This document shows positions 32,986-51,955 of a stretch of 64,000 nucleotides of DNA, piece after piece. This DNA comes from Candidatus Bathyarchaeota archaeon (GTDB lineage Archaea > Thermoproteota > Bathyarchaeia > 40CM-2-53-6), in contig CAWABQ010000022.1 in NCBI GenBank assembly GCA_963780265.1, forward strand, positions 8,548-72,547, in the 5' to 3' direction. The notes beneath the pieces are model-generated. The model saw only the letters and a program-made list of their open reading frames with translations, was not told where the DNA came from and did not search any database. How positions within the stretch are numbered: the first letter of the stretch is position 1; the number at the start of each line of letters is the position of its first letter. Position numbers and translations under genes: made by a program.

Positions 32986-33519
32986 TCAGGTTTTCCAGAA
33001 TCCGTCGAAGGTTGAGAATGCAAGGTCACCGATCTCCGGAATGAAATGGTCTGTCACGATTATCAGAAACGCCACTGCGAACACGCCAAGAATGAGGCCT
33101 GTGGGGTAGTGGGCGAGGGACCACGGTAAGATCCCGTTGTAGAGCAGCCATATCTCCAAGGCTATCCGGCCAATGTTCGCGACGTAGACGGTTACGGCAA
33201 CAATCCCAAGAGCAGTGAGTCTTTTCTTGATGGCAACTTTAGGCATGGCAACAATAATTCCCAAGAAGACCGCAATCACTTGAACACCAGTACACATTCG
33301 CTGGATTTCGAATTGATTCAAGAAGACTTGATTGCCCTGGTACCAAACGGTTGCCTTAATTCCAATTAACTCCATCAGGATAGCTGAATGTTCCGCAATG
33401 AGTTTTTCGAAGAAGAAATAGTTCGGTAAGTAGTATAACACGAGTGCGATAACGGATGTTATTCCGAGAACCCGTCCGATTTCGAAAATCTTCTGCCGCT
33501 GGAAGTGCTCCGATCCCAT
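32986..33519 (-). CDS. exosortase/archaeosortase-family protein (short form) with a Cys/Arg/His triad
   Basis: 177 aa with about 5 TM helices. Motifs are EIQRMC(76)TGVQV, VANIGR(118)IALE and LAH(137)YPTG. It is adjacent to a PEF-CTERM gene. Confidence 0.7.
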   Translation of the reverse strand: MGSEHFQRQKIFEIGRVLGITSVIALVLYYLPNYFFFEKLIAEHSAILMELIGIKATVWYQGNQVFLNQFEIQRMCTGVQVIAVFLGIIVAMPKVAIKKRLTALGIVAVTVYVANIGRIALEIWLLYNGILPWSLAHYPTGLILGVFAVAFLIIVTDHFIPEIGDLAFSTFDGFWKT

Positions 33520-33710: not shown

Positions 33711-34178
33711 TTACCTTTTTCGTTTCCTGTGCTTCATTACCGTTAGGGCTGCTGTGATCGCTACGATCGCAATGGTCGATGCCATTCCCGTGGGAAATTC
33801 AGGTACTGGTACGTGGGATTGTTCAAGGGTGAAATTGCTTGGAGTCGATGAACCGTCCGAGACGGCAACAGTGTTACTGTAAGCCGTGTACCCTGGTTCT
33901 ATAACAGTGACGTTGTAAGTGCCTGTGGGTACGTACATTTCATAATAGCCGCTTGAGCCCGTATATGCCACGAATTTGTATTGGCCGTTGGTCGCGGTTA
34001 CAGTGGCCCATTCGATGGGTTGAAGTTGGTCGTACATATCGAATCCTAGCACCTGGCCCCTAATCAGTCCGCCTCCGTAACTCGGATTTGGTTGAGACTG
34101 CGCGATTGCTACTCTTGCTCCGAGCAGGGCCAGTGCGATCATTCCCGCCGCCATAAGGACGTAACACACGAGCTTCAT
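33711..34178 (-). CDS. secreted CarboxypepD_reg-like beta-sandwich protein with a PEF-CTERM sorting signal
   Basis: Signal peptide MKLVCYVLMAAGMIALALLGARVAIA. Then GYYEMYVPTGTYNVTVIEPGYTAY. The C-terminus is VPVPEFPTGMASTIAIVAITAALTVMKHRKRKR. Confidence 0.75.
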   Translation of the reverse strand: MKLVCYVLMAAGMIALALLGARVAIAQSQPNPSYGGGLIRGQVLGFDMYDQLQPIEWATVTATNGQYKFVAYTGSSGYYEMYVPTGTYNVTVIEPGYTAYSNTVAVSDGSSTPSNFTLEQSHVPVPEFPTGMASTIAIVAITAALTVMKHRKRKR

Positions 34179-36692: not shown

Positions 36693-36853
36693 CGATAATC
36701 TGAAATCTTTCAGAATTCGCGACTAAGCAGTAACGTTGCATGATTATTGTTAATCCGGATGAATAGTCGCATTTGGGCGTGCATGTTTCCATGCCCCTAA
36801 ACACTTTATGAAATCAGAGAGAACACGATCGAAAAGGTTCGGTCGACGAAATT

Positions 36854-37561
36854 ATGGTCGCAGGGACTAGACGGACACTTACGATACTCGCTCTCCTCTT
36901 TTTCGGATTATTCTCCGCGCCAAACCTGTCGTCGGCCGTCTTTGCGCAAAGTCATCCGGTTGTGGTTTTTGCGCCAGGGACCTCCATGCCGCTCCCCCCC
37001 TCCATGCCGCTTCCGGTTCCGGCTCCTGGCTATGTGCCACACGCTGCCCCTGTTTCAGGAGTGATACGGGTTCTTCTGATAGCCGCCGCTTTCTCAAACC
37101 TCAACTACACGGTCAGTATTGCTACGTTAAAGCAGCAGTATTTTGGAACCCTAGCCGCATACTACCGTGAAGCATCGCTTGGGACGCTGACAATTCAGGG
37201 GGATGCAATCGGTTGGTACAAGCTTCCCTATCCCGAATCGCATTATGGAATGGACTGCCAAGCGATCGACGATGCCGACTGCAGCGGAGCGGACCAGTCA
37301 TGGCAGATTGCACAGGACGCTGCAAATCTGGCCCAGAAAGATGTTGACTTCACCAATTACGGTTATTTCGTCTTCATACACTCTGGGAATGGTGAGGAAT
37401 CTTCAGGCGTGAAGAGTGACGTATGGTCAGTAACCTACCTTGGCGGAGTGTGGGTTAGAACAAATTCGAAAACTCTCACAAAATTCAACATTGACCCGGA
37501 ACTTGAAGCCGGTGGGCCGTACCTAACGGAGTCTGGGTTCACGAATTCGGACACAACCTAG
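36854..37561 (+). CDS. secreted M6-like (immune inhibitor A-type) metalloprotease, N-terminal fragment (frameshifted)
   Basis: Signal peptide MVAGTRRTLTILALLFFGLFSAPNLSSAVFA. The break is at about 37507-37530. Confidence 0.7.
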   Translation: MVAGTRRTLTILALLFFGLFSAPNLSSAVFAQSHPVVVFAPGTSMPLPPSMPLPVPAPGYVPHAAPVSGVIRVLLIAAAFSNLNYTVSIATLKQQYFGTLAAYYREASLGTLTIQGDAIGWYKLPYPESHYGMDCQAIDDADCSGADQSWQIAQDAANLAQKDVDFTNYGYFVFIHSGNGEESSGVKSDVWSVTYLGGVWVRTNSKTLTKFNIDPELEAGGPYLTESGFTNSDTT

Positions 37562-39591
37562 GATTGCCCGATCTATACAACACCAGTACCGGCAAAACAA
37601 TTCTAGGCCCCTGGGAGCTGATGGACAAAGGTTTGTGGAACGGCGCTCCGCCTGGATCAAGCCCAGCCCACATGACGGCCTGGCCTAAACTTCAGCTGGG
37701 GTTCATCAGTGGATCCCAACTCGCAATGGCGAACCTTGGAGTGACAACGACCTTTGTTGTTGATCCAACTGAGATACCTTCAAGTAACGTGCACGCAGTC
37801 GAGATACCGCTCACGAGCAGTTCGGACCAAAGCCATTACTACCTGGTTGAAGTGCGATCAGCGACGGGCTTCGACGCGGCTTTACCTGAGACAGGTGTGC
37901 TGATCACCTACGTAGATGAGAATGCCGTCATCGGTAAAGTACACGTTATGGATGGCCATCCAGGCGTTCCAGACTTGGAGGATGCTGTTTGGAATGTCGG
38001 CCAAACCTTCAGTGACAGTCAGAACCACATCGCCGTAACTGTGACCGGCAAGGTAGGAAATTCCTACCAAGTAACTGTGAATAGGGGCAACGAACAGCCG
38101 CCGCCACCACCGAATCAGAACCAAACAACCTACATCGACCTCGCAATAACAGGAGTCAACGCTCAACCCCAAGTGATCACAAGCCCGAACACGACGGTTA
38201 CCATCACCATCCAAGTATCAGACCTAGGAACTCAAGCAGCAACCAATGTTCCCGTCGGAGTTGACTTGGATGGCCAGCACTACACGAACACCGAGATCAG
38301 CGTAGCCGCAGTTTCTTCAACTCAGACTAGTTTCACCTGGGTTTCAGTCCTCGGAAGTCACACGTTTCAAATAACCATAGATCCGTACCGTACGATTAAT
38401 GACACGAACACCGCGAATAATAATGCGACCTTCACCGTAAACGTTGGACCCGTACTTACCATCAACGTTCCTGGCAATCTAACGTCCGCCGGCAACATGT
38501 GGGTTCTTATTGATGGGGTGAAGTACAATTTGACCTCAAGCCAATTTCAGACGAGCGTCCCTAACGGTACAATAACAGTTCAAATCCAGCCTGCAGTCAA
38601 CACCTCGCTGGGCGTTCGACAATCGTTCACTGGATGGTCAGACGGAGACTTAACCAACCCGCGGAAAATCGTGATCACCTCCAACACCGTAATACAGGCC
38701 GAGTACGCGACCCAGTACCTACTCGCCGTCGATCAGAATGGCGGCACAACAACAGCCAGTGGATGGTACACCCCAGACAGCATAGTGAATGTTAACGCCG
38801 CGAATCCATCAAACGTAACGACAAACGCGTCGCGACTAATATTTTCCAGTTGGACCGGAGACCTCAATTCAAATTCAACTTCACTCACAGTCAACATGAC
38901 CAACCCGGTTACAGTGAAAGCAAACTGGATGAAGCAGTACTATGTCACCATAATCTCCCCGACTGGCTCGCCTACGGGCAGTGGCTGGTATAATGCAGGG
39001 AACGTAGCCACGGTGGCCGTTCAATCAATTGTTCAATACTCGAATGGAACCAGACAACTCTTCACGGGCTGGAATTCGACCTCGCTTGGAAACAACCCGA
39101 CAGCACAGATTTACGTAAACGCCCCCACGACACTGCAAGCCGGGTGGAAGACGCAATATCGGATAACGGTAGATTCAGAATACGGAACACCGCTCGGATC
39201 AGGGTGGTACAATGTTGGGTCAACTGTCTCAATCTCCGTACAAAATGAGGTGGACTATGGAAACGCAACACGCCGAACATTCGCTGACTGGACAGGGGAC
39301 TATTCAGGCACCTCACCCAGCATAACACTACAAGCAAATGCGCCGAAGAACTTGACAGCAAGATGGAACACGGCGTACTTGGTCACCTTCATCGTTAATG
39401 GTGTCTCAAATTCAACAATTCTCAAACTCAACCTGAACAATTCGTACCATGACCTGTCAGTCAACAACAACTACCATTTTTGGTTCCAAAAGGGTACCAC
39501 GATAAACCCCTCATTGAACCAAACGATAATTGACGGATTCACTGTTCACCAGTTCGCCGGATGGAAAAACGCAGACGGGAGGGACAATTGA
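37507..39591 (+). CDS. M6-like metalloprotease: catalytic motif, CARDB-like domain and GSGWY repeats (the track ORF starts at 37564)
   Basis: Frame 1 reads GVWVHEFGHNLGLPDLY (HExxH at 37540-37554). A CARDB-like segment follows (TVTITIQVSDLGTQAATNVPVGVDLDG...NDTNTANNNATFTVNV). There are at least 3 tandem ~75-aa repeats containing GSGWY. Confidence 0.75.
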   Translation, partial: SRWAVPNGVWVHEFGHNLGLPDLYNTSTGKTILGPWELMDKGLWNGAPPGSSPAHMTAWPKLQLGFISGSQLAMANLGVTTTFVVDPTEIPSSNVHAVEIPLTSSSDQSHYYLVEVRSATGFDAALPETGVLITYVDENAVIGKVHVMDGHPGVPDLEDAVWNVGQTFSDSQNHIAVTVTGKVGNSYQVTVNRGNEQPPPPPNQNQTTYIDLAITGVNAQPQVITSPNTTVTITIQVSDLGTQAATNVPVGVDLDGQHYTNTEISVAAVSSTQTSFTWVSVLGSHTFQITIDPYRTINDTNTANNNATFTVNVGPVLTINVPGNLTSAGNMWVLIDGVKYNLTSSQFQTSVPNGTITVQIQPAVNTSLGVRQSFTGWSDGDLTNPRKIVITSNTVIQAEYATQYLLAVDQNGGTTTASGWYTPDSIVNVNAANPSNVTTNASRLIFSSWTGDLNSNSTSLTVNMTNPVTVKANWMKQYYVTIISPTGSPTGSGWYNAGNVATVAVQSIVQYSNGTRQLFTGWNSTSLGNNPTAQIYVNAPTTLQAGWKTQYRITVDSEYGTPLGSGWYNVGSTVSISVQNEVDYGNATRRTFADWTGDYSGTSPSITLQANAPKNLTARWNTAYLVTFIVNGVSNSTILKLNLNNSYHDLSVNNNYHFWFQKGTTINPSLNQTIIDGFTVHQFAGWKNADGRDN

Positions 39592-39799
39592 AGCACCATT
39601 GGTTGTCAACGCCCCCGGAACGTATGTGGCATCGTACTCAACCTCCTTCACACTTCCTCCAATACCCGGATTCCCAACCGAGGGAATTATCCTGGGCATC
39701 CTTATCGGGATGCTAATGTTGGCAGCCATTCGAAGACGTAGGCATGAAAAGCCGAACTTTGATAGCCGCCTGTCCGGAACGCAGGAAGCCATCAACTAA
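39530..39799 (+). CDS. C-terminal sorting-signal fragment of the M6-like protease
   Basis: The join at the G-runs 39577-39583 gives ...GWKNADGGTIEAPLVVN.... The end is LPPIPGFPTEGIILGILIGMLMLAAIRRRRHE, i.e. PGF/PEF-type motif, TM helix and basic cluster. Confidence 0.65.
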   Translation: MTDSLFTSSPDGKTQTGGTIEAPLVVNAPGTYVASYSTSFTLPPIPGFPTEGIILGILIGMLMLAAIRRRRHEKPNFDSRLSGTQEAIN

Positions 39800-39803
39800 G
39801 AAC

Positions 39804-41984
39804 TTATGCAGCTAATCTACGGTTCTTAGATTTGGTAAGGAACACGATGCCCCGCATTTCCTCGACCTGGAAACGTATCCAATTGTCGATGTAGGGTTTA
39901 TCCCGCAGCTTCTTGATCCTCAACCGCCTTCTTTGGCCCACCCCCGACTCCTGCAGCTGAGTCTCTATCACACAATCGGAAAATTCCTCGAGCTTTGTCA
40001 TATCCTCGCTCTCGATGCCCGTGCCGACGGTTACGCAGAATTTTCCGTTATTTGCCTTAACCTTAGCTGCCACTGATTGAAGGAAATTAATCAAGTAATC
40101 AATACGCAATGCGGTGATTAGCGGGTTTAACGAGTCAAGATAGACGTCTGCTTTGGGACCTGCGATCTCAAGGCACTTTGTGATGTTCAAACCCAAGTTC
40201 GTCAAGTCTGTGTGTGAACCAACTGAAAATTCCTCTTTTGACGAGCCTCCTCCAACCGCGGAATAAGCATCGATGAAAATGACTCTGCCGTTTTTCAAAT
40301 CGGCTTCGGTACAAACTCCGAGCTTGATGAGGCTTTCGCGGATTTTGTCCGGGTATTCGGTGTTGGTGATGTATACTGATTTGCCTAAAGCCAAGTGCTC
40401 TCCTGCCAAAGAGTTCAACAAAACAGATTTGCCCGAGCCGGAGTTGCCTGCTATGGTTGTGAAACATGCTTCGGGTAAACCACCATGGGTCAGCTCCGTG
40501 AAGTACTTGAAGCCCGTCGGATAGAGCTTGCCCCTCCTCCTCCGAATTAGCACGACCGACGCGACGGATATTATGGCCAGCGTGGCGATGACAGTGATTG
40601 TCCGATGTGGGAACGGAACCCTAACAATTGCTCCACCGTTTGCTATCACATTCAATGGCGACTGATATGTAGCGAAAAAGTAGTCTGCGCGAACGGTATA
40701 GTTGCCCCCCGGGATTTTCTGGAAGTTAGCAACGCCATCTATCCCAGTAAGGACATCCTGAACCACGGATTTCTGGGACAGCGTGACGTGAGCCGCAGGG
40801 ACTGGTAGCGCGAGCAGCGGTGTGTCCATAACTATCCGGACTGAGATATCGTAGAGTGCCAGTCGAAGTACAAACATTGAAGCGCAGTCGATAGAGGGAA
40901 GAGGTAGAAACGTTTGTGTCCCAAGCCAGGAGATTGTCAGATTCATCGGACCGACTATCTGGCTTGAAGGTAGTGACAAGATGCCAACACCAGACGCGTT
41001 TGTGGCAGTGCTCCAAACTGCTTCGCCTCCAAACTTTACAGTTAAAGTAGCGTTCGGGAGAGACGTATTATCTGAAGTTACAACTTTAATTGAAACGGGG
41101 AAGAAATTGCTTACCCAGAAATGGTCGGTAAAGGAATAACTATCACCTGAGAGGTCGCGCAGCAGCAAGACTAGCTGCCATTGTCCCTGACTAAACCTCG
41201 AAGCAACCGAAGCCAGGCCTGAGTAGTCAGTGTTGTTCTTGAGGTTGATTGGAAAATTAATGTTCGTCCCGTTGGGAGCTGTCAGCTGAAAGGAAACGTA
41301 TGCGAAACGGTAAGCGCCAACTGAATCATTGACCGCCGCGCCGATTTTGACCGCCGCGCTGCCCCCAGCATCTGCTTGAAAGATTCTGCCGAAACTATGT
41401 TCTCCTTGCAAGCTCAGGTCGGCTGTTGTGGGCGATAGAGTTGGAAGCCTGAGACCTGTCGGAGCCGCCGGGTCGTCCCACACAAGCAGCGGCGTTCCTG
41501 AGCCTGATGTTTGAAGAACCCCGATGTGAAGTACTATTGCCGAGCCTGTTCGGAATTGGTAGTCGATAATTCCAACTCCAACGGTCACTGGCAAAATCGT
41601 TGTTCCCAACCTGATCGGGCCTGTGTCCACGATTGCAGAGGGGACCGCGATTTCTGTTCCTCCCTTAGGGAGTTCAGCTAGCCGTAAGCCAACCGTTCCG
41701 AAGAAGGCGTTGCTAGCCCGCAGGTATACTGTGAATGTTATGGCCCCGTAGATCCGCAGATTGTCACCAAGCACCGGGGTGAGCCTGAAAGTGATTCCTT
41801 TACTAACGTCGGCAGTTTTCTGGCCCGTCGGTTGTGGGAGGGCGTTAAGAATCGTTTGGTCCCCGTAAGAATGAGCGTACAGCGTAATGTTATGGGACGT
41901 AGGCGTAGGCTGGGCTTGCGCCCCGGCAGCCATCAACATTGGTAGAAGAATGATTGAGATGAGAAGTAGGCATGAGGAGCGCAT
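39804..41984 (-). CDS. single-pass transmembrane protein: large ectodomain plus cytoplasmic KaiC/RecA-like ATPase domain
   Basis: Signal peptide MRSSCLLLISIILLPMLMAAGAQA. The ~440-aa beta-rich ectodomain includes CarboxypepD_reg-like segments. The TM helix TVIATLAIISVASVVLI is followed by RRRRGK. Walker A is AGNSGSGKS and the Walker B-like motif is RVIFIDAYS. The ORF is intact. Confidence 0.7.
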   Translation of the reverse strand: MRSSCLLLISIILLPMLMAAGAQAQPTPTSHNITLYAHSYGDQTILNALPQPTGQKTADVSKGITFRLTPVLGDNLRIYGAITFTVYLRASNAFFGTVGLRLAELPKGGTEIAVPSAIVDTGPIRLGTTILPVTVGVGIIDYQFRTGSAIVLHIGVLQTSGSGTPLLVWDDPAAPTGLRLPTLSPTTADLSLQGEHSFGRIFQADAGGSAAVKIGAAVNDSVGAYRFAYVSFQLTAPNGTNINFPINLKNNTDYSGLASVASRFSQGQWQLVLLLRDLSGDSYSFTDHFWVSNFFPVSIKVVTSDNTSLPNATLTVKFGGEAVWSTATNASGVGILSLPSSQIVGPMNLTISWLGTQTFLPLPSIDCASMFVLRLALYDISVRIVMDTPLLALPVPAAHVTLSQKSVVQDVLTGIDGVANFQKIPGGNYTVRADYFFATYQSPLNVIANGGAIVRVPFPHRTITVIATLAIISVASVVLIRRRRGKLYPTGFKYFTELTHGGLPEACFTTIAGNSGSGKSVLLNSLAGEHLALGKSVYITNTEYPDKIRESLIKLGVCTEADLKNGRVIFIDAYSAVGGGSSKEEFSVGSHTDLTNLGLNITKCLEIAGPKADVYLDSLNPLITALRIDYLINFLQSVAAKVKANNGKFCVTVGTGIESEDMTKLEEFSDCVIETQLQESGVGQRRRLRIKKLRDKPYIDNWIRFQVEEMRGIVFLTKSKNRRLAA

Positions 41985-42228: not shown

Positions 42229-42810
42229 CTATACTCGCTTCAGTTCTCGCATACGTTTCAGATTGGTTACAACGGCGCTGGGAATTTCACTGGGACTGTA
42301 CATGCTCAAGTGGTATTCCTCCAAATTCGGCCTTACAACACAAACGTAGAGGTTCATGCCGAGAAATTGCAAAAACGCCGAAACCGCAGCGTGATTTCGT
42401 ATCTGCCGAGAAGGCGAAGTCGTAATTTGGATCGCGCATGGCTTTCCACCTTTGTAAGCCAAAGCATCAAATACCCAGAAACTTGCCACGTCACCCTGCT
42501 CTCGCGACCTCAGCCCTTGCGGCCAGAGGATCTTCCTAAATCCTTCCTTTGGTAAGATCTTCTCTAAGGCTACCTTCTTTGCTGCGAAGATCCTTTCATG
42601 GTCGATAGTTGGGCTGGGTTTTCCCTCAAACCAACCTGAGTAGAGTGTGGATATGTACTTCTTCGCTCTGAGCCGTTCTTTTTCACTGTTTGCACGGTAG
42701 CGTTTTCTTTTGACTTGTTTCTGGCGGTCGCGGTACTCCTTATGGGTCCGCCAGTAGTTTCGATGGTAGCTTCGGAAGTATTGCTTGTATTTTTGGTAGG
42801 GTGTTGACAT
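42229..42810 (-). CDS. basic hypothetical protein (possible degenerate PD-(D/E)XK-like C-domain)
   Basis: The N-terminus is Lys/Arg/Tyr-rich. The C-half LEKILPKEGF...FDALAYKGGKPCAIQITT resembles an Hjc-like nuclease layout but lacks the ExK lysine. Confidence 0.45.
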   Translation of the reverse strand: MSTPYQKYKQYFRSYHRNYWRTHKEYRDRQKQVKRKRYRANSEKERLRAKKYISTLYSGWFEGKPSPTIDHERIFAAKKVALEKILPKEGFRKILWPQGLRSREQGDVASFWVFDALAYKGGKPCAIQITTSPSRQIRNHAAVSAFLQFLGMNLYVCVVRPNLEEYHLSMYSPSEIPSAVVTNLKRMRELKRV

Positions 42811-42872: not shown

Positions 42873-42946
42873 TTATATATGGTTTGATGGGCCTATCGTC
42901 GCTTGGTATACGTCAAGCAAGTTGACGTAACCGAAAAATTAAGGGA
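42873..42946 (+). promoter_or_regulatory. promoter/leader of the 4.2-kb surface-protein gene: TATA-like box, perfect palindrome, SD-like GGGAG
   Basis: TTATATAT lies at 42873-42880. TACGTCAA-gcaag-TTGACGTA lies at 42909-42929. GGGAG lies at 42943-42947, about 12 nt before the TTG start at 42959. Confidence 0.4.
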
Positions 42947-42958
42947 GAAAAAGAAAAT

Positions 42959-43378
42959 TTGCATAAGAAATTTGCTGCAGGGCTAACAATAGCCATATTT
43001 CTAATTAGCACTCTAGCGATTGTGAGTCAACTGACTCCAGTTAGCGCCCACTTCACATTGGGCGACTATACCTCAACTTCCCCATACCATGCCTGCGACT
43101 TTGACGGGGGACGCCACCAAATGTGTTCAAGCTTCAACAAACAAGTTCACGTGCCAGGCGTAATCGGTTATGTGTGGCCAGGATCTGGCTCAGCCGATTA
43201 CATGGGCCAAGGCCCAGCGCTCGGATTCTCATATGGGAATAACGCAGCGCCAGGCTACATGCCTCCGAACCCCGCGGCGGACCTCGCAGGGACGGGAGCG
43301 CCCCAAAACTGGCTTCAGCTTGACCTGATGCGTACGCTCCATTCGGAGCAGTCCTCACCGGCTCAACCGGTGACTTGA
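42959..43378 (+). CDS. giant PEF-CTERM surface (S-layer candidate) protein, fragment 1 of 6
   Basis: Signal peptide MHKKFAAGLTIAIFLISTLAIVSQLTPVSA. The frame breaks near 43322-43326, and frame 1 continues PDAYAPFGAVLTGSTGDLIF. Confidence 0.7.
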   Translation: MHKKFAAGLTIAIFLISTLAIVSQLTPVSAHFTLGDYTSTSPYHACDFDGGRHQMCSSFNKQVHVPGVIGYVWPGSGSADYMGQGPALGFSYGNNAAPGYMPPNPAADLAGTGAPQNWLQLDLMRTLHSEQSSPAQPVT

Positions 43379-43644
43379 TTTTCGCAGTGAACGCAACCAA
43401 GCTGGCTCATGAGGCGCACTTCACGAGACTCTACATAGCCATCCCACCCGAATTCACCCTACCCGGCGGTGTCGATAACATCGTCACCACCATAACCAAC
43501 AAGTACGGCAACATCATCAATTACGGACACATCAGCCCGTACGACAGATGGGCACCAGGGTGGACCCTTCTGCGAATCGGTGCTGACAACATACCAGACA
43601 GAGCTGTCAGGGTGACTAGTAAGCAAGCCGCAACCCAGGCCTAG
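43375..43644 (+). CDS. giant surface protein, fragment 2 of 6
   Basis: Coding in this frame actually runs from 43324: ...FAVNATKLAHEAHFTRLYIAIPPEFTLPGG.... Confidence 0.65.
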   Translation: MIFAVNATKLAHEAHFTRLYIAIPPEFTLPGGVDNIVTTITNKYGNIINYGHISPYDRWAPGWTLLRIGADNIPDRAVRVTSKQAATQA

Positions 43645-43738
43645 GATCTGGAATCAACTTCAAGAGCACAGGCTTGCAGATACAGTAGGACCGAACGGCG
43701 TTTCAACGACGGGCGGTATCTGCGACCCATGGTACTAC

Positions 43739-44536
43739 GTGAGGATTAACGGTGTCACTGCACCCACAGTTGCTGGAAAATACTTCTTCAAACTATCATT
43801 CCGACACGACGGAGCGGTCGGCGGTGCTACTGGCGCCAGTGCAACCGACTCGTACTTTGTCCCAGTTGAGAACTGGCCAGTCATGCTCGTTAAGGGTGAG
43901 ATTGACCCAGCAATCATTACTGGCAACATAAAGTACGGCGGATACAATGCTTCACTCTACGGATTACCCGTAGAAGAGGCAGGCCAAGTTTGGGCTCACA
44001 TGACGACCAAGCTTGACCCGTACACGGGCAACAAGCTCATCGACTGCTCAACCGGAACACTCATGGCCCCGACTGCAGGATGCACTGATGCCGTTGGATA
44101 CTTCAACGCAACAGCCCACGGCCACTACGAGGTGGAGGGTGTAGCGCCAGGTACCTACGACATCTACGCTGAAGCGGCAGGATACCCACAGTTAGTCATC
44201 GCATCAGGCGTGACTGTTCTGAAGGGCCAATCGCTGCACTTCGACGGATACCTACAACCCGGAGCAGTGATTCACGGCGACATCAACTCCAAGCACCAAT
44301 TCGGAGTTGAGCCATGGCCATACACAGAATACATTAAGGTTGAACTCTACGACCAACCAACCAACAACCACGCACCGCAAGACTCCTCAGGCAACGCACT
44401 CGTACCAGTATACTTGGTCCCCGCTTCCATGTGTTGCGGGTGGTCAAGACAGTGTACCGAGGCGGAACTGATGCGCAAGGTTGCGGTGACCCGCGAACCG
44501 CCAGCCAAATTGCCTTCCCATGGCATGAATGGCTGA
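43739..44536 (+). CDS. giant surface protein, fragment 3 of 6
   Basis: The frame is open from 43616. It contains a CarboxypepD_reg-like unit GHYEVEGVAPGTYDIYAEAAGYPQLV. Confidence 0.65.
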   Translation: MRINGVTAPTVAGKYFFKLSFRHDGAVGGATGASATDSYFVPVENWPVMLVKGEIDPAIITGNIKYGGYNASLYGLPVEEAGQVWAHMTTKLDPYTGNKLIDCSTGTLMAPTAGCTDAVGYFNATAHGHYEVEGVAPGTYDIYAEAAGYPQLVIASGVTVLKGQSLHFDGYLQPGAVIHGDINSKHQFGVEPWPYTEYIKVELYDQPTNNHAPQDSSGNALVPVYLVPASMCCGWSRQCTEAELMRKVAVTREPPAKLPSHGMNG

Positions 44537-45105
44537 CGCAAGACGGGTTCCCAGGAGCAGGCAACGGCTTCAGCTACGACTTCTCACTCTCCGGAGTTCC
44601 AAAGTTCGGTCCAGCACCAGCGGCTAACCCAGGTGCTGGGAGCAACATCAACATGTTGACAACTGACCCAGCAGGAGTTGGGCCAGCACAGAACTGGTTC
44701 GTTGTCGCAGGCTCAACCGCACCATTCCACTTCGAATTCGGCCTCAAGGGTGAATTCGGAGCACCAAGAGACATGAGCGGGGAGGTCCCGCAACTGTTCG
44801 CGACATGGATCAACGGGCTAACGCCCGGAAGATACTATGTGCGAGCATGGACCTTCAGGTATGTCCAATCTGCGCTTGACGGTGCAACATTCCAAGAATA
44901 CCCATTCGACGTCACACCCCAAGAATGGGCGGGTGACGTTACGCTACCAATCGACATCCGCTTGAGCAGCTGGGTGAACAAGACTGTTCACTTCCACGAC
45001 CTGCCAGGCACCATCAACACCGACCCCCTCAGCACGGGAGTTCAAAACTCCTACGACCCCTACATGGTTGGAGGACTCTACGGCGGCCCTATACGGGGAC
45101 TCTAG
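44431..45105 (+). CDS. giant surface protein, fragment 4 of 6
   Basis: ...IAFPWHEWLTQDGFPGAGNGFSYDF...RYYVRAWTFRYVQSALDGATFQEYPFDV.... It ends at an in-frame TAG at 45103-45105. Confidence 0.65.
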   Translation: MLRVVKTVYRGGTDAQGCGDPRTASQIAFPWHEWLTQDGFPGAGNGFSYDFSLSGVPKFGPAPAANPGAGSNINMLTTDPAGVGPAQNWFVVAGSTAPFHFEFGLKGEFGAPRDMSGEVPQLFATWINGLTPGRYYVRAWTFRYVQSALDGATFQEYPFDVTPQEWAGDVTLPIDIRLSSWVNKTVHFHDLPGTINTDPLSTGVQNSYDPYMVGGLYGGPIRGL

Positions 45106-45249
45106 GATCAACGCAGCCTAGCTTCATGGAACGTCACCAACATCAGCAACGGCGAAGGCAGCCAAGCAATCACTTTCTTCGGCTTCAACGACACATGGAT
45201 CGGCGATAATTACGGTATCCCAGCCGGCACATACACACCTTAGGTGTAG

Positions 45250-45498
45250 GTGCAAGGATACTTACAGCAAACCTTCGAACAAGTTTCCGTAACTCTCAGC
45301 GGTAACCCAACATTCATCAGCGACCACATGTATCGAGGCGTAGGCCTCAACATCACGGCCTACAGCGTCGACTGGGAGAGGCCCAGAGTCAACAGGAACT
45401 GGGTCTGGGATGGCGCTGAAATCGACTTCGCAGTACTGAACGCAACGGCACCCAAGTCAACAACATATGCTACGAATGCAATGCTGGCAACGGAGTAA
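45250..45498 (+). CDS. giant surface protein, fragment 5 of 6
   Basis: Same frame as fragment 4, separated from it only by TAG codons at 45103, 45241 and 45247. The stretch between them (SWNVTNISNGEGSQAITFFGFNDTWIGDNYGIPAGTYT) is clearly coding. Confidence 0.6.
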   Translation: MQGYLQQTFEQVSVTLSGNPTFISDHMYRGVGLNITAYSVDWERPRVNRNWVWDGAEIDFAVLNATAPKSTTYATNAMLATE

Positions 45499-45643
45499 CC
45501 GGTGGACTAGCAACTACAGTTCCACCTTATCCAGCGGATACCCAAAGCTTTGAGATCAGCGGCACACCAGGCGTCATATCATATGTGGTGGCGCCGGTAT
45601 CTGTACTACACCTGCTGTCGACCAAGAAGCCAATACATACTTC

Positions 45644-47182
45644 ATGGAAGTTCCAGGCTTGGGCGTAGGTAACGCCAACGGAGCCTGGTTCGGCATCGAA
45701 ACCATCGGTGAGGCCAATGCGGGCCACGCTGATGTCGGTGGATACACAGGTTACGCTTCAGGACCCCCAGGTGCAACTGGAGCAGACCCGCACGTACAGT
45801 CACCACTGGTTGGAGGCTTCGGCTTTACAACCGCGGTGATCAACAACTGGCACCACGTAAGCTACTTCAAACCAACCGCACTAGACTCCGGCCAATACTG
45901 CATTGCAGGATGGACCTACGGCTACGTACAGGACAAGCAATTCTGCGTCTACGCTAACAAAGGTGAAATTGCAGACATCAAAGTGAACTTCCTGATCGGC
46001 GTGAACATAACGTTGGATATACTCTTCAAGAAAGAGCATATCATAACGCCAACGGCGTTCAACATGTCTGCAAGAGTCCGAGTCTTCGATGACTCAGGCG
46101 TCCTTGTTGGTGAATGGATGACCAGCGAAGGCACATACGTTACAGGCAATGGCCAGGCGACGTCAGCCACATGTGGCGACGACATCTTTGGACATACAGG
46201 TCCAGGATCCGGATGCCTATACCCATGGGACGGAGGACTAGAGGGCGCTACCCCGATCGGCTTCAACTACCTACCGGGCGGCGTTACCAACCTCCACGTA
46301 CTCATCGCAGGCTTAGCACCAGACGCGACGGACACCACCACGGGAACGTGGGGTGACCCCGTCTTCGCGAACTCGGCTATCAACTGCGACTTCGAAGTCG
46401 ATTGCACAGGCCCAGGATTAGGCTACCCGTCACCCTGGTTTGTCAACAATGGCATATCGGGTGCACCGGACTATACGGGAAGCTGGACTGTTGAAACCGA
46501 CTTCGTCAATTGGTACGCTAACAACACAAGCTTCACAACGGAACCGGCAGGAGTTGTGATAAACCACAGCGTTCCACAATACTACCCACCAGTGGTCGGC
46601 TTACTGCAAGGTGAGTCATACCACATAATACCCGGCACCACAGCCACGACAGGCGTAAGCTTGACAGAGGACGGTGCCGAAAACAGCGCATTCCTTGGAC
46701 TGGCCGCACCAGGCATGGAGCGTAACCATCTTGGTCCGTACCAGCAACAAGGAGTCTGGCAACTATCCAACGCTCACCTAAGCGGTGAAGTCAGCGGAGT
46801 ATTCGAACTTGACCTCGCAGGCTACGTGTCAGGCTCAGCGTGGGCCTTCACATGGAGCAACGAGTTCAGGCCACTCAGCTGGGCAACCGTAACCATCGCT
46901 AGCGCAGACGGCAAATGGACCTTCACACAATACACCCAAGACGGAATCTACGAAGGGTACCTACCGCCTGGATCGTACACTATGACGATCTCGGCGCCAG
47001 GAATTACTTCGCAGACCCAGAGCTTCGTCGTAACAGCAGGCCAATCCTCAGGTGTAGGAACCGGCCAACAACTCTACATGGAACAGAGCAACATTCCAGT
47101 CCCAGAATTCAGCGGAATCGCAATCATGGCATTCTCAGCCCTAGCAGCATCACTATACCTACTACGACGCAGACGCCGCTAG
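45644..47182 (+). CDS. giant surface protein, fragment 6 of 6, with PEF-CTERM
   Basis: CarboxypepD_reg-like unit DGIYEGYLPPGSYTMTISAPGITSQTQSFVV. The C-terminus is SNIPVPEFSGIAIMAFSALAASLYLLRRRRR (PEF at 47102-47110). Confidence 0.75.
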   Translation: MEVPGLGVGNANGAWFGIETIGEANAGHADVGGYTGYASGPPGATGADPHVQSPLVGGFGFTTAVINNWHHVSYFKPTALDSGQYCIAGWTYGYVQDKQFCVYANKGEIADIKVNFLIGVNITLDILFKKEHIITPTAFNMSARVRVFDDSGVLVGEWMTSEGTYVTGNGQATSATCGDDIFGHTGPGSGCLYPWDGGLEGATPIGFNYLPGGVTNLHVLIAGLAPDATDTTTGTWGDPVFANSAINCDFEVDCTGPGLGYPSPWFVNNGISGAPDYTGSWTVETDFVNWYANNTSFTTEPAGVVINHSVPQYYPPVVGLLQGESYHIIPGTTATTGVSLTEDGAENSAFLGLAAPGMERNHLGPYQQQGVWQLSNAHLSGEVSGVFELDLAGYVSGSAWAFTWSNEFRPLSWATVTIASADGKWTFTQYTQDGIYEGYLPPGSYTMTISAPGITSQTQSFVVTAGQSSGVGTGQQLYMEQSNIPVPEFSGIAIMAFSALAASLYLLRRRRR

Positions 47183-47477: not shown

Positions 47478-48977
47478 CTACCGGGGTTTTTTGCTTGCCG
47501 AGCGGCGAATCCGTGAGCGCTTGCGTTTTTTCTTCGTTCTCGATTTGAACGCGTATAATCCTGCTGAGGCTCCTATCACAACGACTAGCCCTACTACCGC
47601 GTAAAGGCTAAGGTTTGCGAACGCAGCTTCCGTCTCATGAGTTATGGATATCGTTGGCTCAGTAGTGACTAGATGAGTTGAGCTGGAAGTCCTAGTAAAC
47701 CTTGGGGGGTTAGAAACAGAAACAGGGTAGGTGCCTGGGATCCTGACAAACGCCGCCCTGATTATCGAGTATAGGGCGAGCATAGTGGTTGCCAAGTCTG
47801 ATGGACGCAACTGGCGGCCGTCAACGGGGCCTTCGTAGAAGTTTCCTTGCGGAGTCTGCATGTCTGTTGATCGTTCGTCGCTTCCCGTCAACCAAGCATA
47901 GATCCTGTTTGAATCATTCCAGTATTTTGCGGGGCCGAGGTTGATCCAGACGTCAACTGTGGCCGCAAGCGTCGCAGATGTCGTCCACGTAAGCCTTGGG
48001 TATGGTATCGGGCCATTCGTATCGCGTCCGAAGGATACGCCCCCATAAGAGTCCGTGATATTCTCGACGTATCCTTCTTCCCATTGCTGCATCATGTTGC
48101 GCATACCATCCAACTCAGTTCGCTGGCTCGGGATCAGTAGTCCGATCCCTTTGTAGTAGCTGTTCAGCCCGAACATCGCGAATGCGTTTTCCTCGCTCGG
48201 TTGGAGGTTCATCGAGGCGTTCGAGTAGAAGCCGCCATTCCCCCAACGTGATCTATCGCGCTCCTGCAAAGAATTGAGCCAAGTCGCCATGAGCCGAGCG
48301 TAGCCGGCAAATCGTTCTGCAATATCTTTTCTCCCCCAATAATATTCGAAGGCTGCTACGTACATTAGCCCCATCAAGAGCGCTCCCTGGTATCTCACGT
48401 CCGTACCGCGCAAGCCGTTCGGAAACGCGAAAACGACGCCACCATCTCCGTTCAGCGAAGCAGGAAGCCAAACGTCAAGGCATAAACTTAGCCTGTCAAC
48501 TATCGGAGACCAGAAGCCATTTTCCGAGTTTATCTGACTGGTAACCGTAAAGGCGGCGTATGCAACACTCATCAAGACAAGGGAATTCCAATAGTAGAAT
48601 TTCCCGCTCGATTTCCAAGTCCCGTTTCCAAAGTCGTAGTATTGGTAGAAATCCCCATCCGGCGCCTGGGCGGCTGCCACGAACCTTGCCGCCCTCTGCA
48701 AGTCCACATAGTGACTTGTAGAGAAATGAGTTTCCTGGAATGAGGAGAGCGCCAAAGCAACCAGCGCATTGTCTTCCGTATACGCGCGCATAACCGAACC
48801 GTTTTGGTCGTGGAGGTATCCAGACACAACTGCGCTGCTGTGATAATTATTCTCGACGAATGTGATTGCACGCAGAATGCGATTCTCAATATCTGTGGTC
48901 GAAGTAACGGCAAGGCTCGCTGGCACAAAGGCCGGAATTACGACTAGTGCTAACAGGAGGAATACCAATTGCCTCAT
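47478..48977 (-). CDS. anchored extracellular alpha/alpha-toroid protein (prenyltransferase/terpenoid-cyclase-like repeats)
   Basis: The signal peptide begins at the ATG at 48977 (MRQLVFLLLALVVIPAFVPASLA); the track ORF starts at 49061. Repeated patterns are AAQAPDGDFYQYYD and WGNGGFYSNAS. The C-terminus is a TM helix plus KKKRKRSRIRR, with no PEF motif. Confidence 0.55.
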   Translation of the reverse strand: MRQLVFLLLALVVIPAFVPASLAVTSTTDIENRILRAITFVENNYHSSAVVSGYLHDQNGSVMRAYTEDNALVALALSSFQETHFSTSHYVDLQRAARFVAAAQAPDGDFYQYYDFGNGTWKSSGKFYYWNSLVLMSVAYAAFTVTSQINSENGFWSPIVDRLSLCLDVWLPASLNGDGGVVFAFPNGLRGTDVRYQGALLMGLMYVAAFEYYWGRKDIAERFAGYARLMATWLNSLQERDRSRWGNGGFYSNASMNLQPSEENAFAMFGLNSYYKGIGLLIPSQRTELDGMRNMMQQWEEGYVENITDSYGGVSFGRDTNGPIPYPRLTWTTSATLAATVDVWINLGPAKYWNDSNRIYAWLTGSDERSTDMQTPQGNFYEGPVDGRQLRPSDLATTMLALYSIIRAAFVRIPGTYPVSVSNPPRFTRTSSSTHLVTTEPTISITHETEAAFANLSLYAVVGLVVVIGASAGLYAFKSRTKKKRKRSRIRRSASKKPR

Positions 48978-49229
48978 TGGATCATCGGCCTTCGTTCCTG
49001 GGCGCACATTACATTTAAGTTGTATTGGGATCTGCCATAGCTCTGCCAACGCCAAGGTCAAACCATATGGCAGGACGGATCAAATGTTTGGCCCCCCTGT
49101 TTGACGCAGAAGTGCGCGCTTGGGACTGCCTATTCTTAGCCTAATGGTTCAGTTGGTTTGTTGACAGAACCAGCAAATAATTATGGGAGCCGCTAACTCT
49201 CATTGAAGCAAGCTTAGGATGCGGCTGGA

Positions 49230-49979
49230 TTGGACAGAGTTACGACAGGCATTAAAGGCCTCGATGAAGTATTGAACGGCGGCCTACCGAAGGATAGAAC
49301 GATCCTAGTTGTGGGAAGCCCAGGGTCAGGAAAGACAACTTTCGCGATACAGTTCCTTGTTGGTGGGGCGAAGGCTGGGGAACCAGGCCTCTATGTCTCC
49401 TTAGATGAGAAGCCTGAACGCATCAAAGCTAACCTCTCATCATTCGGTTGGAACCTGGATTCCCTCGAAGATGCCGGGAAGCTCACATTCATAGACGCAA
49501 CGCAACTCAAACGCCCGGGGCAACGAATCAACCAGCCACCCATTGACTCTGAAAACCCCGTGAGCCTCACCCTCCCAGAACTAACCTTAGGGTCCCTCGT
49601 CCGAACTATCAGGCGCGTTGCAGCAGAGGAAGGCACGCAAAGAATCGTAGTCGACCCCATAACCTCACTAATGCTCCGCTATCCAGAGGAGGCCAAACGA
49701 AGGCGCGCGCTTCTACTCTTCTTCGACGCACTCGAGTCAACCGGATGCTCCTGCATCGTAACCAGCGAACTCCGCACATCAATGCTTGCTCGGCGATTTC
49801 AAGTCGAAGAATTTCTATCACAAGGCGTCGTACTACTTCATACAATGGTACATGAGGGAAACGTTATTCGAGGGTTACAGGTTGAGAAGATGCGAGGCAT
49901 AAGCCACGACGCACAACTCCGCCCGTACCAAATTGGCCCGTCAGGCGTCGAAGTCTTTCCAAAGGACAGAGTCTTCTAG
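49230..49979 (+). CDS. KaiC/RadA-like single-domain ATPase (COG0467-type)
   Basis: GIKGLDEVLNGGLPKDRTILVVGSPGSGKTTFAIQFL (Walker A), RIVVDPITS (Walker B), LQVEKMRG. Confidence 0.8.
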   Translation: MDRVTTGIKGLDEVLNGGLPKDRTILVVGSPGSGKTTFAIQFLVGGAKAGEPGLYVSLDEKPERIKANLSSFGWNLDSLEDAGKLTFIDATQLKRPGQRINQPPIDSENPVSLTLPELTLGSLVRTIRRVAAEEGTQRIVVDPITSLMLRYPEEAKRRRALLLFFDALESTGCSCIVTSELRTSMLARRFQVEEFLSQGVVLLHTMVHEGNVIRGLQVEKMRGISHDAQLRPYQIGPSGVEVFPKDRVF

Positions 49980-51941: not shown

Positions 51942-51955
51942 ATGGGTCCATTTTT

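Follow-up and report, generated by a model that had tools for sequence, protein, structure and literature searches.

A Bathyarchaeia family of predicted single-pass membrane proteins that joins surface beta-sandwich domains to a KaiC-like ATPase domain

The KaiC family of ATPases has undergone great expansion in archaea, where its members have been proposed to form the core of a signalling network whose input from outside the cell is mostly unknown. Makarova, Galperin and Koonin reportedly argued in 2017 that KaiC-family ATPases combined with varied input and output domains serve as archaeal signalling hubs, and according to secondary citations the fusions they described include REC, HalOD1 and PAS domains. 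No membrane-anchored KaiC with an ectodomain is described in the searchable literature, a body of work that does not include the 2017 survey itself. Among the described systems, ArlH, a KaiC-like protein regulated by autophosphorylation, forms a hexamer docked at the membrane on the ring ATPase ArlI; the residue at its catalytic glutamate position varies, and is glutamine in some Euryarchaeota (bioRxiv 10.1101/2021.03.19.436134). The phosphorylation state of KaiC-family ATPases has also been described as governing their interaction with a second component (PMC4858521).

We identified a membrane-anchored KaiC-like protein that looks like a receptor, or a device for coupling at the cell surface, of a kind apparently not described before. 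Its gene lies in a 64,000-nucleotide stretch of DNA (the window) from a member of the Bathyarchaeia, an abundant uncultured sediment lineage. Our best explanation, to which we assign as a whole a probability of about one half, is that the protein belongs to a family of Bathyarchaeia, with one representative in Nezhaarchaeales, in which a transmembrane (TM) helix and a divergent KaiC-like domain are fused to interchangeable surface domains, and that it acts as a ring-forming, membrane-tethered nucleotide switch that couples the cell surface to the cytoplasm together with a soluble KaiC. The orthologue family, the presence of the same TM and KaiC module on other Bathyarchaeia proteins, and the pairing with a soluble KaiC are new here.

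The gene, which we refer to as mKaiC, occupies positions 39804-41984 on the minus strand, and the coordinates given below for its parts are on the same strand. It is an intact ORF with an ATG start that encodes 726 amino acids, and it is further defined by its orthologues and by an AF2 model with a mean pLDDT of 87.7. A sequence-only reading of the window had divided this intact ORF into a signal peptide, a beta-rich ectodomain with CarboxypepD_reg-like segments, a single TM helix followed by RRRRGK, and a RecA-fold domain with the Walker A motif GNSGSGKS, and each of these parts was recovered in our analysis.

Only two hydrophobic peaks are found by hydropathy. The first, residues 1-25, is MRSSCLLLISIILLPMLMAAGAQA, in which an A-x-A precedes Q25. 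Residues 1-24 (41913-41984) are assigned to the signal peptide from hydropathy, alignment and the AF2 model, which has a helix at residues 3-17 followed by a low-confidence stretch at 18-27. Cleavage would occur after AQA, and both A24 and Q25 are near-invariant across the orthologue alignment. The second peak, residues 460-483, is TITVIATLAIISVASVVLI and coincides with an AF2 helix of the same extent. The hydrophobic core of this single TM helix spans residues 462-480 (40545-40601; hydropathy 2.56), and the basic cluster RRRRGK that comes after it (residues 481-486; 40527-40544) is assigned to the cytoplasmic side. In 71 full-length orthologues, N-glycosylation sequons (N-X-S/T) number 2.0 per 100 amino acids in the ectodomain compared with 0.47 on the cytoplasmic side, a four-fold excess that supports an N-out, C-in topology. 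With its signal peptide, one TM helix and inner positive charges, the protein is a type I single-pass membrane protein by hydropathy, the positive-inside rule, the AF2 helix and the sequons, with the ectodomain outside the cell and the KaiC-like domain inside.

The tether between the membrane and the ATPase domain is very short. Only about eight residues separate RRRRGK from the first conserved KaiC element (F492), and the orthologue alignment keeps RRRRGKLYP-x-x-F-x-YF. RecA-superfamily rings with N-terminal membrane anchors exist, and a tether of this length would suit a membrane-tethered ring translocase in which six TM helices and a RecA-type ring form an ATP-driven conduit (compare TrwB/VirD4 and FtsH-type hexamers). 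However, no conserved secretion, conjugation or protease genes were found near the loci of the target family or near the PKD-type loci described below, the Pfam and NCBIfam matches to VirB4/TraC are limited to the P-loop, and conduits of this type do not typically have a single TM helix in each subunit preceded by a 430-aa ectodomain. We consider a translocase barely credible.

The ectodomain is all-beta over residues 30-456 in the AF2 model and consists of four domains; a separate AF2 model of residues 25-295 has a pLDDT of 93. D1 (residues ~28-184; 41433-41903) is a jelly-roll beta-sandwich resembling galactose-binding domains. In Foldseek it matches hydrolases of the CocE/NonD and PepX type in their C-terminal jelly roll (E 2e-8, TMq 0.47), and the same region also matches GH2 sugar-binding plus Ig modules. 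D2 (residues ~185-293; 41106-41432) is modelled as an Ig-like beta-sandwich, the fold of which matches GH2 Ig-like domains and RbmA. D3 (residues ~294-376; 40857-41105) appears from its AF2 strands and a weak Pfam match to Big_3_5 at 297-361 to be a transthyretin-like or Big_3_5-like beta-sandwich. D4 (residues ~377-456; 40617-40856) is a transthyretin-like CarboxypepD_reg domain that matches Pfam PF13620 at residues 394-446 with 36.4 bits (cut-off 32.3), and this match covers the segment quoted in the sequence-only reading for its beta-rich ectodomain, which here spans ~430 aa. We summarize D3 and D4 as two predicted transthyretin-like CarboxypepD_reg domains.

As a whole the ectodomain is similar by Foldseek to adhesin stalks built of tandem Ig-like domains, for example those of TIE, SpaC and SdrD, and a profile search shows its homology to giant repeat surface proteins elsewhere, over their N-terminal ~430 aa. 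The domain types found in this protein and its relatives (jelly roll, Ig, transthyretin-like, PKD and CARDB) look typical of adhesins and S-layer-type proteins and unlike classical ligand sensors such as Cache, 4HB and PAS. We also considered the ectodomain as a paralogue of the giant S-layer-like protein encoded next to it and rejected this, as a tblastn search of the whole window with residues 25-460 returned, at BLAST sensitivity, only the ectodomain itself.

The KaiC-like domain (residues 488-720; 39825-40523) has a RecA/KaiC fold in the AF2 model, with a pLDDT of about 80-90. Residues 489-718 match Pfam KaiC PF06745 with 72 bits (cut-off 26.6), and the PDB profile match to PH0284 is 7e-12. 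Target-normalised Foldseek TM-scores are 0.81-0.83 to PH0284 (2dr3), 0.82 to 2w0m and 0.78 to KaiC CI, and the domain also matches the structures of SSO2452 and FlaH. A marginal match to DUF7504 (PF24336; 28.2 bits compared with a cut-off of 27) overlaps the KaiC match at 545-674 and is stronger in relatives (36-49 bits). Of the searches that the sequence-only reading had proposed, the domain-profile search returned KaiC and CarboxypepD_reg, each above cut-off, and the structural search of the ectodomain returned jelly-roll and GH2 sugar-binding/Ig-type folds.

The nucleotide site and the putative subunit interface are well-conserved. The Walker A motif GNSGSGKS (residues 513-520; 40425-40448) and the Walker B motif VYLDS (residues 614-618; 40131-40145) contain K519 and D617; these two residues, together with D572 and D670, do not vary across the 23 diverse module sequences compared. 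The segment K692-L-R694 (39903-39911) aligns to the K-x-R-G motif of KaiC (KMRG in PH0284, KFRG in KaiC), with K692 present in all 23 sequences and R694 in 21. We take this motif to be the inter-subunit Lys/Arg finger K224/R226 of KaiC, and its conservation would imply assembly into a ring. HMM alignment to the ALEEHP of PH0284 places T542-E543 (40356-40361) at the twin catalytic glutamate positions that follow strand 2 in KaiC (E77/E78 and E318/E319). The first is threonine and the second acidic, and members of the wider family usually retain one acidic residue at one position or the other. As threonine replaces the proposed general base (the equivalent of KaiC E318/E77), catalysis by this domain may, judging from its sequence, be slow or absent.

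The loss of the first catalytic glutamate would suit a structural surface protein, in which the KaiC-like domain is a catalytically dead pseudo-ATPase that serves as a platform for oligomerisation or anchoring, bundling the stalks into a spike and holding them to the cytoplasm. The Walker A motif is also degenerate in some relatives (GEANVEKG in P0204 and GEAVAEKD in P0225), the ectodomain is like the Ig-like adhesin stalks named above, and archaea are known to have inactivated KaiC domains (iKaiC; PMC5847659). However, divergent members show little or no variation in the Walker A lysine, the Walker B aspartate and the Lys/Arg finger, and no part of the protein is more conserved than the cytoplasmic domain, which has a mean identity of 75% compared with about 50% for the domains of the ectodomain. 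In addition, a nucleotide-dependent function is favoured by the conserved pairing with a soluble KaiC that is itself intact. A purely structural role is rather improbable, and the reading as a nucleotide switch is preferred.

Immediately before the TM helix is the motif VPFPHRT (residues 456-462; 40599-40619). In the orthologue alignments A1 and A2, P457 is invariant and V456, P459 and H460 are each conserved in at least 90%. A small archaeosortase-family gene of 177 aa (32986-33519, minus strand; NCBIfam exo_archaeo 40 bits compared with 23; ArtH/heimdallarchaeosortase-like) is syntenic with the target in every locus examined. The near-invariant motif, the TM helix and the RRRR cluster could belong to an archaeosortase-processed precursor, cleaved by the neighbouring enzyme so that the ectodomain would be freed or lipid-anchored and a TM-KaiC stub left behind, and the Loki-CTERM model (NF033507) does score the TM helix and Arg cluster at 19.2, close to its cut-off of 19.9. 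However, the match extends over profile positions 6-25 only, which is the TM and Arg part and not the signature. Known sorting signals are C-terminal, whereas 243 residues follow here, and the VPFPHRT motif was not found in the PKD-type relatives. For comparison, the end of a neighbouring M6 protease passes the Loki-CTERM cut-off with 22.5, and the neighbouring PEF-CTERM ends score 17.6-19 against a cut-off of 23. We rejected the TM helix and RRRR as a PEF-CTERM (TIGR03024) or Loki-CTERM signal, and processing of this kind is very improbable.

We found at least 79 full-length orthologues of the target with the same length and architecture, sharing 47-98% identity, so the architecture is no chance fusion. 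All of those with an organism name are from Bathyarchaeia, with the exception of one short contig labelled Methylomirabilota. The phyletic and neighbourhood survey that had been suggested on reading the sequence yields a Bathyarchaeia family whose genes usually occur beside one for a soluble KaiC.

The TM and KaiC module is not confined to these orthologues. A profile search of 1.84 billion representatives (profile positions ~455-712, E about 1e-50) identified it as the C-terminal part of proteins of 460-1689 aa, in which the ectodomains ahead of the module contain PKD, CARDB, Ig-like or CarboxypepD_reg domains. In most relatives hydropathy places the TM helix 35-50 aa ahead of an intact Walker A motif, with a few falling below threshold. 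One relative (P0174) is from Nezhaarchaeales and has a polytopic N-terminal membrane domain in place of the ectodomain. The occurrence of one module behind many unrelated ectodomains follows the modular logic of receptor families. Species genomes were scanned with the PKD-type subset (alignment A4) of the broad module alignment A3. Of the 15 PKD-type loci obtained, 14 are titled Bathyarchaeia or Bathyarchaeota and the other is a short contig binned as Rikenellaceae; weak matches from Nitrososphaerales, Chloroflexota and Bacteroidia (L024-L033; 22-36% identity) are generic KaiC and were not counted. A word-indexed protein search with A3 returned mainly short fragments and added little taxonomy.

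The proposed partner is a soluble canonical single-domain KaiC of 249 aa encoded at 49230-49979 on the plus strand (167 bits to the NCBIfam KaiC model, 1.7e-56 to PDB KaiC). The sequence-only reading had noted a soluble KaiC-like paralogue 7 kb from the target, with the two genes flanking an S-layer candidate; both observations stand, as this gene is a canonical KaiC and a PEF-CTERM gene (42902-47182) lies between the two. In 14 of the 15 PKD-type loci a soluble KaiC, 41-46% identical to that of the window, adjoins the membrane KaiC and is the sole conserved neighbour. The two genes are often convergent with overlapping stop codons, and since they are convergent in most of these loci they are not co-transcribed. 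In the target family a soluble KaiC is found within 10 kb in five of nine informative genomes (the window, L005, L008, L034 and L035), directly divergent from the target orthologue in L005. No soluble KaiC occurs within the 8-10 kb examined in the other four (L001/L002, L004, L006 and L007). Within the family the soluble partner is 84-91% identical compared with 60-68% for the target. The adjacency could in part be a relic of tandem duplication. The association of the module with unrelated ectodomains, and a soluble KaiC as its one conserved neighbour, strengthen the receptor-like reading, which began as a suggestion.

The gene between the two KaiC genes (42902-47182, plus strand) is divergent from the target and was delimited by tblastn and orthologues. 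It encodes a large S-layer-like PEF-CTERM surface protein containing CarboxypepD_reg domains, and in the window it is broken by at least four frame changes (tblastn frames). Its orthologues are ~1280-1580 aa when called as one gene; in L004 and L008 the orthologue is divided between two calls. A divergent gene of this type is present in nine of 11 related loci, the exceptions being L005 and the truncated L036. The small archaeosortase gene and a small CarboxypepD_reg gene occur in all 11, although in L005 the latter is seen as a partial match by tblastn where no gene is called, and an M6 protease with a Loki-CTERM signal occurs in most. Genes for a PTPS_related protein, other polytopic membrane proteins and a second (thaum)archaeosortase are found 3' of the soluble KaiC. 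Among the called neighbours in the 11 target-family loci there are no archaellum genes, and no KaiB-like domain is annotated by Pfam among the genes called in these loci.

This conserved island is consistent with an envelope-assembly factor that works from the inside out. In such a factor the KaiC-like ring would use ATP or autophosphorylation to organise or regulate envelope assembly, with the ectodomain as a scaffold or stalk, and would act on the S-layer-like PEF-CTERM protein, archaeosortase substrates or glycosylation in a manner likened to Wzc-type autokinases in capsule export or ArlH in archaellum assembly. The family also behaves like a single-copy orthologue whose ectodomain shows moderate conservation, which is housekeeping-like rather than what an environmental sensor would show, and the homology of the ectodomain to giant repeat surface proteins points the same way. 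However, the PKD-type relatives share the soluble KaiC only, without archaeosortase or S-layer genes. The synteny of the target family is weak evidence because it reaches unrelated housekeeping genes (an M50 protease and an acetyltransferase), and the target ectodomain has no homology to the adjacent giant protein that tblastn can detect. We consider such a factor unlikely. The island, with its S-layer candidate, archaeosortases and their substrates, may also inform on the unstudied envelope of Bathyarchaeia.

Under the preferred reading, a membrane-tethered KaiC-like switch working with a soluble KaiC, the four-domain beta-sandwich stalk would project from the cell surface and the KaiC-like domain would sit about eight residues below the membrane. 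The KaiC-like domains would bind ATP and form a RecA-type ring under the membrane, probably a hexamer. Ring assembly, nucleotide state or phosphorylation state would be coupled to external contacts of the clustered ectodomains, for which envelope or S-layer components, glycans or another surface are candidates. The membrane-distal free face of the ring could then dock a soluble KaiC ring, with precedents in the stacking of CI on CII in cyanobacterial KaiC and of ArlH on ArlI, and the soluble KaiC would relay the state through ATPase activity or autophosphorylation. What the analysis documents is the architecture, the indicators of topology, the fold, the conserved residues of the nucleotide site and interface, the modularity of the family and the pairing of the genes; ring formation, catalysis, the interaction with the soluble KaiC, the direction of signalling and the output are what we infer.

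A broader proposal is possible, and we offer it tentatively: these proteins might be a third kind of prokaryotic transmembrane signalling system beside histidine and Hanks-type kinases, comprising single-pass receptors with interchangeable surface inputs, a KaiC-like autokinase/ATPase ring as output, and a dedicated soluble KaiC ring stacked on it as a split CI/CII-like relay. If so, the KaiC receptors would provide the membrane input that the archaeal KaiC signalling network, as proposed, has lacked. In the membrane KaiC and its soluble counterpart, the network idea has a concrete two-protein system in which it can be tested.

Several known systems bear comparison with the target. Archaeosortase substrates (PEF-, PGF- and Loki-CTERM) likewise have a signal peptide, CarboxypepD_reg domains, a Pro/Phe-rich motif, a TM helix, an Arg cluster and an archaeosortase nearby. 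However, their TM helix and Arg cluster are C-terminal and those of the target internal. Wzc-type tyrosine autokinases of bacteria and single-pass receptor Ser/Thr kinases such as PknB link an extracytoplasmic domain to an oligomerising, autophosphorylating nucleotide-binding domain that controls the envelope, and here the resemblance is by analogy only. Wzc is a MinD-like P-loop protein with two TM helices and PknB a Hanks kinase, and their catalytic folds or P-loop classes are unrelated to that of KaiC. No Wzz, GNVR or protein-kinase domains were found in the target by a Pfam scan with E up to 1, and assignment as a BY-kinase/Wzc co-polymerase was rejected given the lack of Wzz/GNVR matches, the one TM helix and the lack of a C-terminal tyrosine cluster.

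ArlH is like the target in having a single KaiC-like domain that acts at the membrane and a variable catalytic glutamate position. It differs in being soluble and recruited via ArlI and ArlJ, and the target scores 46 bits with the ArlH/FlaH model (NCBIfam NF052589) compared with a cut-off of 215. PH0284 (2DR3, deposited with six chains), PH0186 and SSO2452 (PF06745) share the fold, the Walker A and B motifs, the K-x-R motif and a domain length of ~230 aa. However, these proteins are soluble and stand alone, while in the target the domain is preceded by a signal peptide, a 430-aa ectodomain and a TM helix. In sequence the target is about 20% identical to the single-domain archaeal KaiC-like ATPases and has threonine for the first catalytic glutamate. 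Finally, cyanobacterial KaiC is a cytoplasmic two-domain protein that functions with KaiA and KaiB, whereas the target has one domain and is membrane-anchored; its scores with the clock KaiC models NF006799 and TIGR02655 are 53 bits compared with 408 and 16.7 compared with 546. The domains are nevertheless homologous. By analogy, autokinase/ATPase chemistry would be expected in the target, and the proposed membrane and soluble rings would resemble a CI/CII stack held together non-covalently.

The reading frame at window positions 39804-41984 (minus strand) begins with an ATG and runs uninterrupted for 726 residues, as the sequence-only reading had claimed; all coordinates and motifs were derived anew from the DNA sequence. 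A Kyte-Doolittle scan shows no hydrophobic peaks other than those at residues 1-25 and 460-483, in agreement with the signal peptide and single transmembrane (TM) helix proposed in that reading. The first 25 residues form a typical signal sequence, with a basic residue, a hydrophobic core and AQA followed by Q, and both A24 and Q25 are nearly invariant in the alignment of relatives. The second peak is followed directly by RRRRGK, also as proposed. Pfam models match KaiC at residues 489-718 (72 bits; cut-off 26.6) and CarboxypepD_reg at residues 394-446 (36.4 bits; cut-off 32.3), the latter covering exactly the segment previously quoted for that domain. The NCBIfam matches, to circadian KaiC, ArlH/FlaH and 'KaiC_arch' models, are all below threshold. 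Across 71 orthologues, the ectodomain has a fourfold higher density of N-X-S/T sequons than the cytoplasmic portion (2.0 versus 0.47 per 100 residues), which agrees with a predicted topology of N-terminus outside and C-terminus inside.

An AlphaFold2 model built on 79 homologues (mean pLDDT 87.7) consists of an all-beta region at residues 30-456, arranged in four sandwich domains, a helix at residues 460-483, and an alpha/beta domain at residues 488-720. The ectodomain had been expected to be beta-rich, and the model upholds this. In Foldseek searches of the PDB the C-terminal domain matches the Pyrococcus KaiC-like ATPase PH0284 with a TM-score of 0.81-0.83. Further matches are SSO2452, PH0186, the KaiC CI domain, and FlaH, and a sequence profile search picks the same structures. 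Together with the Pfam match, this confirms the proposed C-terminal KaiC/RecA-like ATPase and places the domain firmly within that superfamily. Taken whole, the ectodomain is similar to adhesin stalks built of tandem Ig-like domains. In a separate model of residues 25-295 (pLDDT 93), D2 is Ig-like and D1, at the tip, adopts a jelly-roll fold; D1 matches the C-terminal domain of hydrolases of the CocE/NonD and PepX types as well as the GH2 sugar-binding domain. As modeled, these are generic binding or scaffold folds that point to no particular ligand.

A word-indexed search identified 79 proteins with 47-98% identity to the target. Almost all are 700-745 residues long with the same Pfam architecture, and those that carry a name are called either 'Candidatus Bathyarchaeia archaeon: ATPase domain-containing protein' or 'KaiC/GvpD/RAD55 family RecA-like ATPase', with the single exception of a short contig labeled Methylomirabilota. 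Mean identity within the family is 75% for the cytoplasmic domain versus 48-58% for the ectodomain domains. The juxtamembrane motif VPFPHRT (residues 456-462; window positions 40599-40619, minus strand) is nearly invariant across these 79 orthologues and missing from relatives outside them. It resembles the P-x-F-P part of sorting signals in neighboring genes.

A profile search over 1.84 billion representative proteins returned 1904 hits, 129 of them below 1e-30. The TM helix together with the divergent KaiC domain (profile positions ~455-712) forms a module found at the extreme C-terminus of proteins of 460-1689 residues whose N-terminal parts are unrelated to the target; these matches, with E-values around 1e-50, score far above generic KaiC matches. 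In most of the 50 module proteins inspected, a hydrophobic N-terminal signal precedes a long ectodomain, and a single TM helix lies 35-50 residues ahead of an intact Walker A. Some of the 50 are truncated, a few have TM helices under the detection threshold, and two have a degenerate Walker A. The ectodomains contain PKD repeats, CARDB, Ig-like or CarboxypepD_reg domains, and a relative from Nezhaarchaeales carries a polytopic membrane domain in place of an ectodomain. The target ectodomain (profile positions ~60-455) in turn matches the N-terminal ~430 residues of giant repeat proteins of 1200-1960 residues; the five inspected end in a TM anchor. These matches suggest that the target joins a surface-protein head to a cytoplasmic KaiC.

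The sequence-only reading had pointed out a soluble KaiC-like paralogue 7 kb from the target (49230-49979, plus strand), and pairing with such a protein is the most informative feature of the system. Scanning one genome per species for relatives in which the module lies behind unrelated ectodomains such as PKD repeats (PKD-type) gave 15 true loci. All are titled Bathyarchaeia or Bathyarchaeota, the BA2 genome included, except for one short contig binned as Rikenellaceae, probably a mis-bin. A soluble KaiC, 41-46% identical to that in the window, lies right beside the membrane KaiC in 14 of the 15 loci and is the only gene family that they have in common. We count this pairing as decisive evidence; the flanks of these loci are otherwise unrelated. 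In most cases the two genes converge, their stop codons touching or overlapping, and in L009, L010, and L014, all PKD-type loci, their 3' ends overlap by about four bases (5909-5912, 4402-4405, and 6708-6711, respectively). Co-transcription is thereby ruled out, and antisense interference could occur.

We also compared eleven loci of target-family orthologues (L001-L008 and L034-L036). A soluble KaiC occurs within 10 kb of the membrane KaiC in the window, L005, L008, L034, and L035, and is directly divergent from it in L005. It is not found in the examined flanks of L001/L002, L004, L006, or L007, and L003 and L036 are truncated loci. The soluble proteins of L008, L034, and L035 are 84-91% identical to that of the window, compared with 60-68% for the membrane KaiC orthologues, and are thus under much stronger constraint.

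The target family shares a conserved island of genes encoding an archaeosortase, a small CarboxypepD_reg protein, an Ig-domain membrane protein (766 residues), an M6 protease, the target, and an S-layer-like protein, continuing with the soluble KaiC, a bitopic protein and a PTPS_related polytopic protein (50910-53017). Synteny extends to housekeeping genes (M50 protease, acetyltransferase) as well, so it mostly reflects collinear chromosomes and is weak evidence by itself. In the window, the archaeosortase is small (177 residues; 32986-33519, minus strand) and ArtH/heimdallarchaeosortase-like. A second archaeosortase-family gene, thaumarchaeosortase-like (372 residues; 55781-56899, plus strand; 118 bits, below the cut-off of 250), places two different types within one 25-kb region. 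The M6 protease, which carries CARDB (36821-39799), ends in PPIPGFPTEG...RRRR (39530-39799, plus strand) and passes the Loki-CTERM model (22.5; cut-off 19.9). The small CarboxypepD_reg protein (33711-34178, minus strand) and the giant S-layer-like protein (42902-47182, ending at 47080-47182, plus strand), which is divergent from the target, have PEF-CTERM-like ends of PVPEF, a TM helix, and arginines that fall below the model cut-off (17.6-19 versus 23). Differing sorting signals stand side by side. Orthologues of the giant protein have 1280-1580 residues where called as one gene.

Three further genes lack recognizable families. A very basic 193-residue protein (42229-42810, minus strand) with no family match is encoded just upstream of the target in the same orientation; it is conserved in L001, L008, and L034 and absent in the other loci. 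Between the giant gene and the soluble KaiC lies a 527-residue secreted or C-terminally anchored protein (47478-49061, minus strand) without a Pfam or NCBIfam match, present in L001 and L034 only. The bitopic protein (250 residues; 50067-50819, plus strand), which likewise matches no family, comes after the soluble KaiC in the window and in L005, L034, and L035; L008 has a weaker match that is not adjacent. This protein may belong to the system as an additional component. In L035 the target orthologue is followed immediately by an inserted MazE/PIN toxin-antitoxin pair (12388-12992). Frame changes split three surface or membrane genes of the window that have intact orthologues in L001, L034, and L035: two in the M6 protease gene, at least four in the giant gene, and one in the PTPS_related gene. 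These may be assembly indel errors or pseudogenes. An intact 2.2-kb target among approximately seven breaks in about 9 kb is statistically unremarkable.

With its archaeosortases, sorting-signal proteins, and S-layer candidate, the island would suit an inside-out role of the target in envelope or S-layer assembly. However, PKD-type relatives lack the archaeosortase and S-layer context, and we consider this role possible but rather unlikely. Cleavage of the target by an archaeosortase at its conserved juxtamembrane motif is an appealing but very unlikely alternative: the Loki-CTERM model covers only the TM and arginine part, the score is below cut-off, and the segment is internal rather than terminal. 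We do not class the target among archaeosortase substrates.

In an alignment of 23 diverse module sequences, the Walker A lysine (K519), the Walker B aspartate (D617), D572, D670, and K692 are invariant, and R694 is kept in 21. In PH0284 and KaiC the counterpart of K692-x-R694 is the 'K-x-R-G' segment, which we take to be the site of the inter-subunit Lys/Arg finger; that this interface pair is conserved speaks for a ring as the working form of the domain. T542-E543 occupy the positions of KaiC's twin glutamates (E77/E78 and E318/E319), so the equivalent of the proposed general base is lost in the target family. The second acidic residue is retained, and in the wider family an acidic residue usually occupies one or other position. 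A purely structural stalk anchored by a pseudo-ATPase would account for the lost glutamate and the adhesin-like ectodomains, but it is hard to reconcile with invariant nucleotide-site and finger residues or with a partner KaiC, and appears improbable. ArlH shows comparable variation at the catalytic glutamate and nonetheless autophosphorylates (bioRxiv 10.1101/2021.03.19.436134). Given this precedent, the residues kept, and the one glutamate lost, we expect that the domain is not dead but binds nucleotide and carries out slow chemistry of a regulatory kind.

Overall, we favor a membrane-tethered KaiC-like nucleotide switch that would form a ring under the membrane and pair with the soluble KaiC, a reading to which we give a probability of about one half. 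Only about eight residues separate the arginine cluster from the first conserved KaiC element, which would hold the ring tightly against the membrane. Tethering involves the N-terminal face, which would leave the opposite face free; a second ring could stack there, much as CII follows CI in KaiC, and the soluble KaiC, being genetically linked, is the obvious candidate for it. A translocase-type ring finds no contextual support and is the least likely of the alternatives. For the favored switch, the interchangeable ectodomains suggest that outside events may control the assembly or state of the ring, or be controlled by it. Candidate events are contact with components of the envelope, with glycans or with other surfaces, or clustering alone. 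The analysis establishes the fold, the architecture, the modularity, the conserved residues, and the pairing of the genes; the oligomeric state, catalysis, the physical partnership with the soluble KaiC, and the direction and output of coupling are inferred. The host organisms are uncultured. The family, which is conserved and modular, gives the proposed archaeal KaiC signaling network a specific membrane input that can be tested.

Database annotations of the target family are generic. A KaiC-like ATPase behind a signal peptide, ectodomain, and TM helix is undescribed in the literature searched, which did not take in Makarova et al. 2017, the study most likely to have cataloged such fusions, and our claim of novelty carries this caveat. 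The target is neither a circadian KaiC nor an ArlH, since it misses the NCBIfam equivalog cut-offs by a wide margin. Its resemblance to Wzc-type autokinases and single-pass receptor kinases is functional only. A direct precedent for a single-domain KaiC-like ring set against another ring at the membrane is ArlH, which docks as a hexamer on ArlI and is modulated by autophosphorylation (bioRxiv 10.1101/2021.03.19.436134).
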